From NCBI GenBank assembly GCA_007096525.1, contig SFAQ01000031.1, forward strand, positions 15,666-79,665: a stretch of 64,000 nt of DNA, given 5' to 3'. Position numbers and translations under genes: made by a program. The notes beneath the pieces are model-generated. The model saw only the letters and a program-made list of their open reading frames with translations, was not told where the DNA came from and did not search any database. Position 1 is the stretch's first letter; each line of letters begins with the position of its first letter. Origin of the DNA: Microcystis wesenbergii Mw_QC_B_20070930_S4 (GTDB lineage: Bacteria > Cyanobacteriota > Cyanobacteriia > Cyanobacteriales > Microcystaceae). Positions 10,742 to 16,497 of this stretch are shown one piece after another.

Positions 10742-10952
10742 TTATCTTTGAGAAGGCAAAGGAATTGCTTTTTTACCACTAAAATAAACTTTCTAGCTTC
10801 TTCAATATTAATCATCACTTCCTCTAAAGTTTCCCCCTGAGTAATACAACCATCTAAATCTGGAATTAACGCGGTGTATCCGCTCTCTTCTTCGGGATAA
10901 ATTGAAATCGGATATTTAAGAGATAAAAAGTATTCTAATATTGGTGTTCCAT
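10742..10952 (-). pseudogene. HicB-family antitoxin pseudogene
   Basis: Core frame LEYFLSLKYPISIYPEEESGYTALIPDLDGCITQGETLEEVMINIEEAR; ATG 10952 and the tail SGKKAIPLPSQR* are each out of frame with it. Confidence 0.75.
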
Positions 10953-10960
10953 CGATAGGT

Positions 10961-11362
10961 CTAAATAGGTTTGACTAAATCGCCAACTTGAGCATTATCA
11001 AAAGGTTTTAATTCATCGGATTCTACCACTTCAGATTTATAACTCCTCAATCCCAAAGAAGAATTTTCTATTCTTTTTCTATAAGTTTTTTTCTGATCGG
11101 TTTCAATTATAGATATTTTATCTTGAACGAAAATAATTGTCCCCGTCCCTCTCACTAAGTCAAGATAGCCTAAAGACTCACCAGTCTGAGGATCTTTTAT
11201 TTCTTCTTCGCTTGTATTGTAAACTAACATTCTTTGCCCTTCTCGAATTCCACTAATTTCACCTCTATTGATCACTAATTTATAGTCGTCAATAACTTTG
11301 ACAACTTTGGCAGGAAAAGTTCCTTTAGGAGATAAAAGGGTAGTTTCTGTGACGTTTTCCAT
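10961..11362 (-). CDS. Hypothetical beta-rich protein (FlgT C-terminal-like pattern); paralog of 11409-11819
   Basis: Start reassigned to MENVTETTLL by comparison with the paralog; LVINRG..GI..G and DPQTGESLG motifs. Confidence 0.75.
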   Translation of the reverse strand: MENVTETTLLSPKGTFPAKVVKVIDDYKLVINRGEISGIREGQRMLVYNTSEEEIKDPQTGESLGYLDLVRGTGTIIFVQDKISIIETDQKKTYRKRIENSSLGLRSYKSEVVESDELKPFDNAQVGDLVKPI

Positions 11363-11408
11363 TATATTGACTGGATCAAGACAAAAATAATCTCTATAGC
11401 CGTTTTTC

Positions 11409-11819
11409 CTAACGTGGTTTAACCCAATCTCCAATTTTAGGATCTTCAAATGGCTTTAGTTCATCAAATTCAATGATTTCCGCTCTTTCTTTCGGTGATG
11501 CCAGATAAAAAGGATTTGAATTATCTAACTTTCTTCGGAATGTCTGTTTTTTATCGGATTCGATCGTAGCCATATTATCCTGTACATTTATGACCCGACC
11601 CGTACCTTTGACAATTTCTAGATAACCTAAAGATTCTCCCGTATTAGGGTCTATAATTTCTTCCTCGCTTATCCCATATATCAATACTCGGCGACCCACT
11701 TGAATTCTATTTCGTTCGCCTCGATTCATGACTAATCGATACGGATCAAGGATATTAACTATCTGGGCGGGGAATGTACCTTTAGGCGATAATAATGTCG
11801 TTTCAGTGAGGTTTTCCAT
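11409..11819 (-). CDS. Hypothetical beta-rich protein (FlgT C-terminal-like pattern)
   Basis: 136 aa; LVMNRG and IIDPNTGESLGYLEIVKGTG; 7 bp downstream of the preceding ORF. Confidence 0.75.
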   Translation of the reverse strand: MENLTETTLLSPKGTFPAQIVNILDPYRLVMNRGERNRIQVGRRVLIYGISEEEIIDPNTGESLGYLEIVKGTGRVINVQDNMATIESDKKQTFRRKLDNSNPFYLASPKERAEIIEFDELKPFEDPKIGDWVKPR

Positions 11820-11826
11820 GTTTCTT

Positions 11827-12426
11827 CTAGGGTTGACCGGTATTGAAATTTCTAGGAATGCTAGGCTTGATGATTATTTTTTCAATTAATTTGGGATCGT
11901 TTCCATCTAGGTCATCGATAATATTTTGATAGTTAGGATACGGCTGATTTAGAATAGCTTGTATTTTTCCATCATTTTGGATCACGTTTACGAAACCTAT
12001 TGCAATTAAATTTTCAAACCCGTCATCATCCGTGTAGTAGAAAGAAATATAGATATCATTCGCTAATAAATTTGATGCTTCAAGTAAGCATTGGATATTA
12101 TTATTCGCATCCTTTTGAACTCTTAGAATTTTAGGGATAATGCGCTGTTTAATTTCAGTCTCTAGCTTTTGGTTTACCTCCTGAAGTTGCTTAACTTCTG
12201 CCTCTAATTTTTGCTTCTGTCTAAGAAGCGTGTTAACAGCGCTTAACAAAGTAGCGATTAACAGCAAGGTGAAGAAACTGACAATAATTACTAGATCTAG
12301 AGGGATAGAAGTATTGAATGGATAACGAATTAAAGCAATACCTCCTAAAAATCCAAGAAGACCGAGTAAAACCCCTTGAATTTCGTTAAAACTAGACCAA
12401 ATTAACCCCCAAAAGTTATTTTTCAT
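11827..12426 (-). CDS. Hypothetical 2-TM + coiled-coil + soluble-domain protein
   Basis: Two hydrophobic stretches, heptad QKQKLEAEVKQLQEVNQKLE, beta-rich C-terminus. Confidence 0.75.
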   Translation of the reverse strand: MKNNFWGLIWSSFNEIQGVLLGLLGFLGGIALIRYPFNTSIPLDLVIIVSFFTLLLIATLLSAVNTLLRQKQKLEAEVKQLQEVNQKLETEIKQRIIPKILRVQKDANNNIQCLLEASNLLANDIYISFYYTDDDGFENLIAIGFVNVIQNDGKIQAILNQPYPNYQNIIDDLDGNDPKLIEKIIIKPSIPRNFNTGQP

Positions 12427-12486
12427 CTTTTTTGAAAACTCAAGAGACCGGTGATTAGCCAGTCCCTCAAGTCTTATCTATCTATT

Positions 12487-15400
12487 CTACTCGATTCCTT
12501 CGATACGGTCCTCCACTTCTTGATAAAGTTCCTGTAAGCGGTCTAAATTTTCCTGAGAAGTTTCCCAGTAACCGCGACCATTAACTTCTAACAGGGTTCC
12601 CACCATCTTGCGGAAAGAATTAGGATTGAGATTCATTAGACGCTGACACATTTCCTCATCTTGAATAAAAGTGGTGTTCACATCTTCATAAACCCAATTA
12701 TCCACCGCATCAGCAGTTGCCGACCATCCCATCGTATTAACCAAACGCTTCGATAATTCTCGGACTCCTTCGTAACCGTGACTTAACATTCCCTCGTACC
12801 ATTTGGGATTGAGTAACTTGGTGCGGGTATCTAAGCGCACGGTTTCCGATAAAGTACGCACCTGAGCGTTAGCGGTGGTAGTATCAGCAATATAGGCCGC
12901 CGGTTTTTTGCCATCATCGCGTAAACTAGCGACAACTTTGGTGGGATCCGAGTCGAAATAGTGGGAAACATCGGTTAAACTAATCTCGCTAGAATCCAAG
13001 TTTTGGAAAGTCGCTTCCGCAGTTTTTAAGGATGCTTCAAACAACTGACGATTATCGGCCATCATCCCGGGATTATCCGAGTCGAAAGCAAAACCCTTGC
13101 GGTTGAGATACATATTCTGTAACTCTTTTTCATCTTCCCAACTGCTATTTTCCACCGCGAGATTGATATTAGAAGAATAGGAACCGGAAGCATTAGAAAA
13201 GATGCGGGTGGCTGCCTGTCGAACCGTTAAACCCATTTCTTTTGCTTGTTCCATAGCGTGTTTGCGGACATAATTCATCTCTATCGGTTCATTTGCTTCC
13301 GCGGCCATTTTTACCCCTTGGTCAAGCAAATTCATCTGATTGATAAATAAATCCCGGAAGACACCAGAACAGTTGACCACCACATCAATGCGTGGTCTTC
13401 CCAACTCCTCTAGGGGAATTAATTCCAATTTATTCACCCGTCCCAAAGCATCGGGAACAGGACGAACCCCCACCATCCAGAGAATTTGTGCTAGGGATTC
13501 CCCATAGGTTTTGATGTTATCGGTTCCCCAGAGAACACAAGCGATGGTTTCGGGATATTTACCGCCATTATCCAGTTTTTGCCGTTCTAACAGGCGATCT
13601 ACCACGATTTTAGCCGATTTTACCGCCGCTAGGGTCGGGATAGACTGGGGATCTAAAGCGTGGATATTTTTACCCGTCGGTAAAACTCCGGGGTTACGGA
13701 TGGGGTCGCCACCGGGACCGGGAAGAACGTATTCCCCTTCCAATGCTTTTAATAGGGCCCCTAATTCATTATCGGCACAAACCTGTTCTAAACAGAATTC
13801 TAGGTATTCAAACAGGGGTTTTAACGCTTCCGGATCAACTTTTGGATAACCCATCGACCGTAAAGTTTCGATCCAAGGCGATTTCTTGCCTATATTCAAG
13901 AAATTCAGCTTAGAAAGCATCGATACCCGACCTTCCGCGTCGGTTTGGGACTCGACTAAAGTTGCGACGGCAGCGCGAGTCGCTAGGGTGATGTTTTGCA
14001 GTAGTTCCACATCCTCTAACACACCTCGATCGCTATTGCGATAAACTTCCTCTATATCCCGGCCGATGCTGTTGGCAATAATCCGGGGTAAGGAGAGTAA
14101 ATCGTCCTCTTCCCGGTCTAAACTGGCAATATTGACCAAAGTTGCCACTGCTTCGAGCGCCGAGGGGGGTTTCCCGATAACATGAAGTCCGCAGGGAAGC
14201 AAGCGCGATTCAATTTCCATCAGTTTACGATAGACAGAACCGACAATATTATCCCGTTCCTCTTGACTGAGATGGGCAGTGTCACCATCCCTTCGGCCTG
14301 GCTCAGGGCAAGCAGGTAAACTTATATCTTTGTCGAGATTGACTAAGAAACATTTATCAACAATAGTATTGACAATTTGCACCCCACGCCCACTATCTTT
14401 CAGGGTTTGGTAGGAACCGATCAACTCGCTTAGTTCTTTTAACCCTTTGTAGAGTCCGGCATTTTCTGCGGGAGGAGTAAGATAGGAAATAGTTTCCGCA
14501 TAACTACGACGTTTAGCGATCGTCGCTTCGCTCGGGTTATTAGCGGCATAATAGTAGAGGTTGGGAATCATCCCGATGAGGTTATCGGGGTAGCATTCTC
14601 CAGACATTCCCATCTGTTTCCCCGGCATAAATTCTAGGGATCCGTGGGTGCCAAAATGGAGAACCGCATCTGCTTTCCAGACTTGATTGAGATAGGTGTA
14701 GTAGGCTGCAAAACCGTGGTGGGGACTAGCAGAACGAGAAAAGAGCAGACGCATCGGATCCCCTTCATAACCGAAGGTGGGTTGAACCCCAATAAAAACA
14801 TTACCGAACTCTTTCCCGTAGATTAATAGATTTTGTCCATCACTGTTGAGGTGTCCCGGTGGTGGTCCCCAATTTTCCTCTAAACGGACGGAATAGGGGG
14901 TTAAACGTTCGTATTCCGGTACGGACATCCGATAGGCGATATTTAGCTCCGGACTATGGTATTGTGCTTGAGCATCATGAATTACCGCTTCCATCAGTTC
15001 TTGGGGAGATGCGGGTAAGTCTTGCAAGTCATAACCGTTATTTTGTAACGCTTGCATCACTTCGTAGATGGAACCGAACACATCTAGATAGGCTGCGGTT
15101 CCCACATTCCCTTTATCGGGGGGGAAACTAAAGACGGTGATGGCGACTTTTTTGTTTAGTTTCGGTTTCTTTCTTAGGGTAGCCCATTTTAGCGCCCGTT
15201 GAGCGATCGCTTCTACCCGATCCTGTAAGGCGATCGCTTTACCCGTGGCCCCATCCCGGCCTGATAATATAATAGGTTCGATCGCACCGTCTAATTCCGG
15301 AATAGCAATCTGTAGCGCTACTTGAATCGGGTGTAACCCTAAATCGCTTTCTTCCCATTCCTGGGTGGTTTGGAAAACTAGCGGTAACGCGCACATATAG

Positions 15401-16497
15401 GGACGATTGAGACGTTTTAAGGATTCTATCGCTTTCGGATGATCTTGTCGCGCTGGACCTCCCACTAAAGCAAATCCTGTCAGGGAAATTACCGTATCGA
15501 CGATGGGAACCGCTTCTACTCCTTTTAAGCTTTTATCCCAGAAATATTCTTCTACGGGTTTAGAAAAGTCTAATCCCCCAGCAAAAACGGGAAGGACTCG
15601 CGCACCCATAGACTCGAATTCCTGCACGAGAGCGACATAATGAGCGTCATCACCAGTAACGAGGTGAGTTCTCTGTAAAATTAAGCCAACACAGGGAGCT
15701 AAGGGGTCTTTTAAGTCATCGGCAATATCACTGCGGTTATTGTACCAAGCGAAGTATTCCTTGACATCCTCGAACATTTTCATGGATAAAGGATGCCAGA
15801 TACCGAGATCTGGATAAACTACTGGTTCTTGGTAAACTACGCTGTCATCCTTGTGATCGAAGACGTACTTATCGGCCAACATTAACAGGAAGTTCTCTAA
15901 ATTTTCTGCGGAACCCCCTAGCCAATACTGGAAACTTAACATAAAGTTGCGTGCGTCCTGAGCTTTTTCCATGGGGAGGTATTTCAGGACTTGCGGTAAA
16001 GTTCGCAATAACTTTAACATCGCATCTTGGAAACCAGCACCGGAGTTTGACCTGCGCTTTTTCATAAAATTAGCGATGACACTCTTAGACTGTCCCAATT
16101 GGGCCATGGAAAAGCTGCCTAATTTATTTAAGCGCATTACCTGGGGCATGGAGGGAAAGACGATCGCCGCGTCTAATTTATCCCGATGGGGACTGACAGC
16201 GGCCACAACTTTATCGGCTAAATCTTCGATAAAGATGAGAGAAGCAATGAAAATATTAGCTTTGGCTACATCCTCCTGAAAATTGCGATAGTTTTCCCCA
16301 TCGCGCAGTTCTTCGATTAAATAACCACTAATTTCGATCGCTAGTTTCCGGTTGTTAGCGTTGATTTCCCTGACCGCACTACTCAGCGCACTTTGGTACT
16401 GAGGTTCTAGCACGACATAGACCACCTTGACCAGCGATCGACCATTCAACGCGTCGGGAACTATGTGACGAATGGTGGACTTGACGTGAGTGAACAT
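12487..16497 (-). CDS. chlH: Magnesium chelatase subunit H
   Basis: 1336 aa; [36 protein letters not shown]. Confidence 0.97.

Follow-up and report, generated by a model that had tools for sequence, protein, structure and literature searches.

A widespread pair of genes for a two-helix membrane protein and a small beta-barrel protein, located behind chlH in Microcystis and its relatives, is a candidate anti-phage module

Introduction

Lambda RexA/RexB and the mycobacteriophage exclusion modules each combine a cytoplasmic protein with a membrane protein and are expressed from the lysogeny module. Small beta-barrels of the FlgT_C/TsaP/HAS type are known from a different setting: FlgT forms the flagellar H ring and TsaP the ring at the type IV pilus secretin, and the fold makes rings and scaffolds in other machines. 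In this work we analysed three consecutive genes, here called g1, g2 and g3, in a 64,000-nt stretch of Microcystis wesenbergii Mw_QC_B_20070930_S4 (contig SFAQ01000031.1, positions 15,666 to 79,665), which is referred to as the window. The three genes are a version of a widespread and unnamed two-gene module in which the second gene has been duplicated. Neither g1 nor g2 is in a described family. The architecture, a membrane effector with a soluble partner carried on mobile elements, is of a known kind, and an anti-phage role of the pair is proposed here as a candidate function on the basis of sequence and gene context.

Results

g1 and g2 form an obligate pair

A word-indexed search for the g2 family gave 121 clusters at 90% identity and an exhaustive search for the g1 family gave 348 representatives at 50% identity. 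Scanning of 185,579 species genomes yielded 43 loci, including those of about 27 cyanobacterial species. The others were found in Aerophobetes, Eubacteriales, Clostridium, three Lachnospiraceae, Veillonella, Acidaminococcales, Maridesulfovibrio, Syntrophobacterales, Desulfobacteraceae, and Sansalvadorimonas. With hidden Markov models built from our own alignments, a g1-family gene was detected directly upstream of a g2-family gene in about 45 of the 48 complete loci. The paired loci span at least five phyla (cyanobacteria with their non-photosynthetic relatives, Aerophobetes, Firmicutes, Desulfobacterota, and Gammaproteobacteria) and the two open reading frames (ORFs) frequently overlap. The g1 and g2 trees were alike in shape and the pairwise identities of the two proteins correlated (Spearman 0.69). 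The functional unit is thus the g1-g2 pair, which is obligate. A first-pass annotation made from the letters of the window had described a three-gene operon; these are accessory genes that do form one module, yet its unit is the pair and not the trio. In Kamptonema, Maridesulfovibrio, Aphanothece, and others g1 was broken and g2 intact, an asymmetry that outside Microcystis is partly biased since the searches were seeded with g2.

Relatives of the pair lie in prophages, on a plasmid and in restriction operons

Analysis of gene neighborhoods had been proposed with the first-pass annotation. Around 16 non-cyanobacterial loci we surveyed 148 ORFs at distances of up to 4.5 kb. The commonest Pfam families were HTH_3 (10), Resolvase (8), Phage_integrase (5), Peptidase_M78/ImmA (4), and Peptidase_S24 (3), and DNA methylases and ResIII were also present. 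PHROGs assignments on the neighbors were repressors, integrases, and invertases; PADLOC detected type III and type IIG restriction–modification (RM) systems, RmrA, PDC-S03, and PDC-S48.

Several of these loci are lysogeny modules. The gene order in a Clostridium prophage was DUF6173, the pair, an HTH_3 repressor, and ImmA, opposite the replication genes, and in an Acidaminococcales prophage it was the pair, an 89-aa ORF, and a CI-like S24 repressor. In both the pair was co-oriented with the repressor. The temperate Lacticaseibacillus phage P7.1 carries cro, a cI-like gene, ImmA, an HSDR_N nuclease gene, the pair, and an integrase. The nuclease gene, which codes for a 370-aa HSDR_N/PD-(D/E)XK-like protein and lies between ImmA and the pair, is a candidate for a second prophage defense gene in that slot. 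Small phage proteins with the g2-type barrel fold were found in BFVD, and the g2 family matched phrog_27728.

The pair was further found on the 7.2-kb Psychrobacter plasmid pA27P3, in the order mobQ, pair, 158-aa ORF, repM, and inside a type III restriction operon on gut-metagenome contigs. The genes of this operon (N6_N4_Mtase, g1-like, g2-like, Abi_alpha, ResIII) are co-directional with gaps of 0–6 nt; a Bro-N gene precedes the cassette and an integrase or a resolvase flanks it. As the same cassette occurred in three different chromosomal flanks, it is mobile itself. In a genome of 2 Mb from the same GTDB phylum as Microcystis, a near-identical pair adjoined a gene for a type IIG enzyme. No ChlH homolog was found in these small genomes, which indicates that they are non-photosynthetic. 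We also observed a Band_7/SPFH gene 0.4–1.6 kb from the pair at two unrelated loci, one cyanobacterial and one of Eubacteriales; this proximity may be coincidental.

Such a pattern of prophage, plasmid, and RM contexts is the kind from which new defense systems are usually predicted. Judged by location, the relatives outside cyanobacteria fit the defense class, whereas the window itself does not, the HicB relic being its sole neighbor of this sort.

g2 and g3 are beta-barrel proteins

The g2 and g3 proteins were 56% identical and 82% similar (BLASTP E 6e-58) and both contained TETTLLSPKGTFPA, DPxTGESLGYL, GTG, and DELKPF. Their earlier description as diverged paralogs sharing these motifs is thus correct in every item. 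An AlphaFold2 model of g2 built with 63 homologs (predicted local distance difference test, pLDDT, 84.6) was an all-beta barrel preceded by 13 disordered polar residues and interrupted by a low-confidence linker at about residues 100–112. In the family alignment the DPxTGESLG hairpin loop, GTG, Q80, and the C-terminal PFxxPxxGDxVKP strand were invariant, and the linker between the core and the last strands (about 96–118) varied in length. Neither a signal peptide nor a lipobox was visible in the alignment for g2 or g3.

The top two Foldseek matches of the g2 model were both FlgT (8z5n, E 1.8e-4, TMq 0.50; 3w1e, E 3e-4, TMq 0.46), followed by MreC, the N-terminal barrels of F1-ATPase and HerA, and TsaP, which indicates that the model has the fold of the FlgT C-terminal barrel. 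The g2-family profile detected TsaP in the PDB at E 0.001 and 0.008. At the level of Pfam FlgT_C (PF16538), g3 scored 19.8 bits (E 0.0011) and the barrel homolog of phage P7.1 scored 26.5 bits, both under the gathering threshold of 27 bits, and the Pfam scan of g2 gave no FlgT_C match. One database homolog (P0074) carries a precomputed PF16538 match. The resemblance to FlgT C-terminal domains, already noted in the first-pass annotation, is real, though weak. No NCBIfam or Pfam family reached its threshold for g2 or g3, and neither protein matched PADLOC-DB 2.0.0.

In tblastn the single-copy genes of the other cyanobacterial genera resembled g3 more closely than g2. The tree contained three clades of barrel paralogs in Microcystis with Pannus alleles nested among them; the third gene is a duplication that arose within the Microcystis/Pannus lineage. 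Some Microcystis genomes also carried shorter, solitary g2-like copies (an ORF of about 105 aa) away from chlH, with 43–45% identity to g3.

g1 is a two-helix membrane protein with a beta domain of its own

The first-pass description of gene 1 as a protein with two transmembrane (TM) segments, a coiled coil, and a beta-rich tail agreed with its AlphaFold2 model (pLDDT 79.7), in which helices at 5–34 and 43–95 are followed by a beta-rich domain at 100–188. The protein is composed of a conserved N-terminus MKNNFWGLIWSSF, the 2-TM hairpin, a lineage-variable coiled coil (about 65–95) that was missing in many relatives in the family alignment, and a conserved beta domain (about 98–190) ending in a VKP motif. 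Both the N-terminus MKNNFWGLIWSSF and the C-terminal domain were kept even in the Aerophobetes metagenome-assembled genome. Lys and Arg are clustered after TM2, so that by the positive-inside rule both ends of g1 and its beta domain are predicted to be cytoplasmic. Together with the lack of a signal peptide in g2, this would place the beta domain and the g2/g3 proteins in the same compartment.

No Pfam, NCBIfam, or PADLOC family reached its threshold for g1. The scores obtained were sub-threshold artefacts of the TM/coiled-coil segment: LapA_dom 20.8 (cut-off 28), DivIC 19.9 (28.9), FtsL 14.7 (42.45), and MreC 13.4 (343), all limited to a segment that is absent in many family members. The database names bZIP and FtsL given to g1, and its weak matches to LapA_dom, DivIC, MreC, and eIF2-gamma, were consequently rejected as below cut-off and due to the TM/coiled-coil part or to chance. 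In PADLOC-DB 2.0.0 the only match was ZorB (E 0.15, 9.5 bits). Foldseek returned nothing significant for the g1 model and no FlgT-type match, the best being the Upf1 1B barrel (E 1.8e-3).

It had been suggested that the tail of g1 echoes the fold of g2. This found no support: hhalign aligned only 15 columns (FExLIGxGxVxxIQ vs. LEIVKGTGRVIxVQ) with a probability of 3.6%, and the tail was not accepted as a g2 paralog. The VKP motifs at the ends of both g1 and g2 are suggestive only. A profile of diverse members revealed no fusions of the g1 domain, for instance to enzymatic effectors, among proteins of 110–348 aa, the range covered by this search. A 1455-aa protein with six partial g1 matches (P0228) proved to be a repeat protein sharing only a YYYTDD-type motif.

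Layout of the Microcystis locus

The coordinates of the features are collected in Table 1. The gaps, read from the sequence, were 7 nt between g1 and g2 and 46 nt between g2 and g3, and the GC content was 0.33–0.385 over the g1-g3 block vs. 0.42–0.49 in chlH and the downstream genes. These data confirmed three co-directional, AT-rich genes between chlH and a HicB relic. A 162-aa ORF with a TTG start for g3 was rejected as an over-extension, as it runs into g2. No HIP1 octamer (GCGATCGC) was found within 10961–12426, as had been reported before, but with 27 octamers in 64 kb only about 0.6 are expected in 1.47 kb. The lack is therefore uninformative and was rejected as a sign of foreign origin. 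The chlH gene of the window was 80–98% identical to the PF11965+PF02514 genes at other loci and is single-copy, the sole other paralog in the genome being 38% identical. The HicB-like relic, a decayed form of the gene that many other cyanobacteria keep intact after the pair, lies 8 nt downstream of g3 and is frameshifted and internally deleted; in tblastn, residues 8–58 of an intact Crocosphaera HicB-like protein aligned to it with 84% identity.

Table 1. Coordinates of the features of the window and of the compared loci
Feature	Position	Strand	Remarks
g1	12426..11827	minus	ORF, 199 aa; membrane protein, proposed effector
g2	11819..11409	minus	ORF, 136 aa; soluble beta-barrel protein, proposed sensor or inhibitor
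g3	11362..10961	minus	ORF, 133 aa counted from ATG; g2 paralog
chlH, Mg-chelatase H subunit	16497..12487	minus	ORF, 1336 aa; conserved anchor upstream of the cyanobacterial pair
HicB-like (UPF0150-type) pseudogene	10952..10742	minus	Sequence reading and tblastn
RNA hairpin, 17 bp, then UUUUC	12435..12475	minus	RNAfold; between chlH stop and g1 ATG
Type III operon with embedded pair and Abi_alpha	L085:5322-11299; also L086, L087, L088		
HSDR_N nuclease gene of phage P7.1	L083:1949-3061		
Band_7/SPFH genes	L006:6786-7607, L065:4925-5824		
Solitary g2-like copies	G410:C1:5270427-5270687, G408:C16:401-661, G403:C8:8172-8417		One with a stop codon
Split g1 of Microcystis genome G407	G407:C1:2865256-2867104		
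HicB-like genes after the pair	L044:8443-8676, L048:8543-8770, L060:8409-8702, L055:2445-2747, L079:689-898		
Split g1 of Kamptonema	L001:5372-5979; also L002		

The cyanobacterial branch has a fixed position behind chlH

The pair was present in 14 of the 401 sampled genomes of the phylum (8 of 155 genera), 4 of which lack chlH altogether. Within the order of the window, every locus with enough upstream DNA had the pair on the same strand behind chlH, usually at a distance of 57–107 bp. This count takes in 9 loci (genome search, ENA, and Kamptonema) and about 20 additional named species, with linkage in Microcystis, Pannus, Crocosphaera, Snowella-type, Merismopediaceae, Aphanothece, Waterburya, Pleurocapsales, Microcoleus, Tychonema, and Kamptonema. 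One cyanobacterial locus (L064) had no chlH nearby.

A GC-rich hairpin was found between the chlH stop and the g1 ATG at all 16 cyanobacterial loci that were folded. In the window its energy was −21.6 kcal/mol (z −3.3, RNAfold) and it ended 12 nt before the g1 ATG; the scan for consensus terminators called nothing in the region, and the hairpin emerged from folding. Its core is conserved in Microcystaceae, with compensatory pairs at 2 of 10, and the chlH-g1 spacers of pair-bearing Microcystaceae (L036, L044, L048, L049, L058, L063) have GAGAGACTGG..CCAGTCTCTC in common. The hairpin is probably a leaky chlH terminator or a 3′ stabilizer through which g1 is read. Since no room for a promoter is left after the hairpin in Microcystis, read-through from chlH or a promoter within the chlH 3′ end is likely.

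Downstream flanks differed between genera with the exception of a short HicB-like gene (75–100 aa), located directly after the last barrel gene in Microcystis, Pannus, Crocosphaera, SU3, Snowella, Waterburya, and Laspinema. No HicA was found at the pair-bearing loci. With 75–90% identity between genera the HicB-like gene is better conserved than g1 and g2, and as it is dead in the window, where g1-g3 are intact, it is not needed to keep them. HicAB of the Kamptonema type was considered as a shared neighbor and rejected, because its family differs from that of Microcystis HicAB; what the loci share is the short HicB-like gene. In Kamptonema (GCA_000332155.1, GCA_000180455.1) the g1 ortholog was frameshifted into pieces of 140 aa and 56 aa beside an intact g2. 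The pair is followed there by Kamptonema-type HicA/HicB, DUF6888/DUF6887, and Uma2 genes, indicating that the region behind chlH gathers toxin–antitoxin-like genes in this genus too.

The cyanobacterial g1 and g2 proteins each formed one clade (support 96 and 92) in broadly taxonomic trees, and across 210 non-independent pairs ChlH identity correlated with that of g1 (Spearman 0.71) and of g2 (0.75). A monophyletic branch, the same site behind chlH across orders, and divergence in step with ChlH argue against a recent insertion of the block, which the first-pass annotation had described as inserted between chlH and a HicB relic. In the simplest history the module entered behind chlH once and long ago and was then passed on mostly by vertical descent, with many losses and fast sequence change.

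The locus is polymorphic within Microcystis

Among 17 species-level Microcystis genomes g1 was detected in 13 and the g2 family in 16; no genome had g1 without a barrel gene, and three had g2 without g1. Two genomes (G150, G406) retained the barrel gene with g1 missing. In another (G407) residues 1–166 and 160–199 of g1 were about 1.2 kb apart, which suggests an insertion, possibly of an insertion sequence (IS) or a miniature inverted-repeat element (MITE). The empty site of G405 consisted of chlH, a different hairpin, hicA, and a HicB-like gene, and the pair thus occupies the position of hicA. As the hairpin of this pair-less genome differs in spite of a 99% identical ChlH, the hairpin travels with the module side of the junction.

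At ChlH identities of at least 95%, the identity ranged from 49 to 99% for g1 and from 49 to 96% for g2. On the DNA level, chlH, the hairpin, and roughly the first 40 nt of g1 were 97% identical, and from there on the identity was about 67%. A break of this sort inside g1 is the pattern expected if recombination with its anchor in the conserved flank had replaced the alleles.

Discussion

A proposed conflict module

We consider it an even chance that the pair is a conflict module in which g1 acts as a membrane effector and g2/g3 as cytoplasmic sensors or inhibitors, in the manner of RexAB or of abortive infection. Under this proposal g1 would enter the inner membrane as a 2-TM hairpin with its beta domain facing the cytoplasm, sometimes on a coiled-coil stalk. 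The g2 protein, a soluble cytoplasmic beta-barrel of the FlgT_C/TsaP/HAS type, would dock on the cytoplasmic domain of g1 and either hold g1 inactive or sense the invader. Upon infection the 2-TM hairpins of g1 might assemble and damage or seal the membrane, by which the infection would be aborted or the incoming virus excluded. Duplicated barrel genes with their variable linker could widen or change recognition. The cyanobacterial branch is a long-standing resident behind chlH, in most cases with a HicB-like gene after it, and is probably expressed by read-through of the chlH hairpin. Of the two roles named in the first-pass annotation, defense or envelope, the former gained strong context from the prophage lysogeny modules, the small plasmid, and the RM operons of the relatives, and the latter is unlikely, given that g2 and g3 have no signal peptide and that both ends of g1 are predicted to be cytoplasmic.

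A bolder version, which we hold to be rather unlikely, is that the pair founds a cross-phylum anti-phage or exclusion system in which a ring of barrels gates a 2-TM pore and whose cyanobacterial branch is wired to chlH. A ring of FlgT/HAS-type barrels with the invariant DPxTGESLG loop would then lie under the membrane. The link of the branch to the 3′ end of the transcript of the essential chlH gene would predate the divergence of several orders; the branch would be expressed according to the demand for chlorophyll synthesis, and its alleles would be swapped by chlH-anchored recombination.

Several points weigh against a defense function. The context evidence comes mostly from distant relatives (25–50% identity) and may not transfer to Microcystis. 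In the cyanobacterial branch itself the fixed site behind the essential chlH and the roughly vertical descent are unlike typical defense cargo, and there is no tRNA in positions 1–30000 of the window and no integrase near the locus. The physical interaction of g1 and g2, the identity of the effector, and the direction of control are what we infer from sequence, and the decay sample outside Microcystis is biased by its g2 seed. We found no published description of the pair in the literature. Similarly, no PADLOC (2023) model for a described defense system matched g1-g3, which puts the module outside the systems described there.

Alternative explanations

An addiction role, with g1 as a putative membrane toxin, g2 as its protein antitoxin, and the stabilization of plasmids, prophages, and islands as the main task with no dedicated anti-phage function, is in our judgment improbable, yet it is the alternative that survives best. 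The pair is cargo on a 7.2-kb plasmid with little beyond rep and mob genes, and g1 and g2 are small and tightly coupled. The order of decay agrees with such a role, as g1 is the first of the two to be lost or broken and is never present without g2. HicAB and HigBA modules lie nearby, and the position of hicA upstream of the hicB-like gene is the one taken by the pair. On the other hand, a location between type III mod and res genes with Abi_alpha and repressor-side prophage slots are more typical of defense cargo, and the cyanobacterial pair has long been chromosomal, with no mobile element to stabilize. Because the boundary between addiction and abortive infection is blurred, this alternative overlaps with the conflict module proposed above.

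A somewhat smaller chance is given to a role linked to ChlH, in which the pair, co-expressed with chlH, would act at the membrane to tether, regulate, or monitor ChlH or its products. Cyanobacterial orders otherwise show little conservation of gene order, and the position 57–107 bp behind chlH was found at nearly every testable cyanobacterial locus (about 25 species), covering Microcystaceae, Oscillatoriales-type genera, and Pleurocapsales, whose downstream flanks differ. Between chlH and g1 there is only a hairpin, whose U-tract is weak, and the divergence of both proteins tracks that of ChlH with the correlations given above. Such a role is, however, difficult to reconcile with a pair present in merely 14 of 401 genomes of the phylum, 4 of them without chlH, with presence/absence and pseudogene polymorphism in Microcystis at 96–99% ChlH identity, with the L064 locus away from chlH, and with homologous pairs in non-phototrophs, phages, and plasmids.

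A periplasmic or envelope scaffold like FlgT, TsaP, or MreC, for which the barrel fold, the weak NCBIfam MreC and FtsL matches of g1, and the type IV pili of Microcystis might speak, is very improbable, since g2 and g3 start with disordered polar residues and have no signal peptide or lipobox, the Lys/Arg cluster after TM2 would put the g1 beta domain in the cytoplasm, LysM domains and pilus or flagellar neighbor genes are lacking, the MreC/FtsL matches are far under their cut-offs and confined to the TM/coiled-coil part, and prophage and plasmid contexts do not fit.

Significance

If the conflict module proves protective, it would be a new defense family made from parts unseen in immunity, namely a barrel of the FlgT/TsaP type and a 2-TM protein that has a beta domain of its own. 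The family reaches from gut Firmicutes and sulfate reducers to marine Gammaproteobacteria and bloom-forming cyanobacteria. The Microcystis locus offers a natural polymorphism, since the site can be empty, the alleles fall into several classes, and the number of barrel genes ranges from one to three; this variation could help to explain why strains in blooms differ in their susceptibility to cyanophages. For accessory genes, an invariant position on the chlH side across orders is unusual and presents a candidate case of an accessory module carried along on an essential gene's transcript. Were the ChlH-linked role true instead, chlorophyll biosynthesis would have in this pair an accessory factor not known so far.

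Comparison with known systems

With FlgT_C (PF16538; 3W1E, 8Z5N) and TsaP (6VE2, 3JC8) the g2 and g3 proteins share the small beta-barrel at a TM score of about 0.5. Unlike these, they are stand-alone proteins of about 135 aa predicted to be cytoplasmic, with neither the N-terminal and middle domains of FlgT nor LysM, and they form a family with its own DPxTGESLG loop and GDxVKP strand that is always paired with a 2-TM protein. An export signal and the flagellar or pilus surroundings of FlgT and TsaP were not found either, the neighbors being chlH, hicB, and prophage or RM genes.

The likeness to RexAB lies in the combination of a soluble with a small membrane protein, in the location of the relatives on the repressor side, co-oriented with the repressor, and in the proposed logic of a sensor controlling a membrane effector. 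The differences are in family and in form: no Rex family was detected for g1-g3 in the Pfam scan (E up to 1), g1 has two TM segments and a cytoplasmic beta domain vs. the four TM segments of RexB, and the cyanobacterial branch is chromosomal behind chlH and not in a prophage. RM-operon cargo such as Abi_alpha (PF14337) is comparable in location, as the pair of the relatives lies between methylase and ResIII and directly before Abi_alpha; the pair has no homology with Abi_alpha or any RM component, and the window has no adjoining RM or Abi gene. HicAB, finally, shares the site, with a HicB-like gene following the cyanobacterial pair and hicA-hicB in its place in the pair-less Microcystis genome, whereas g1 and g2 are unrelated to HicA.

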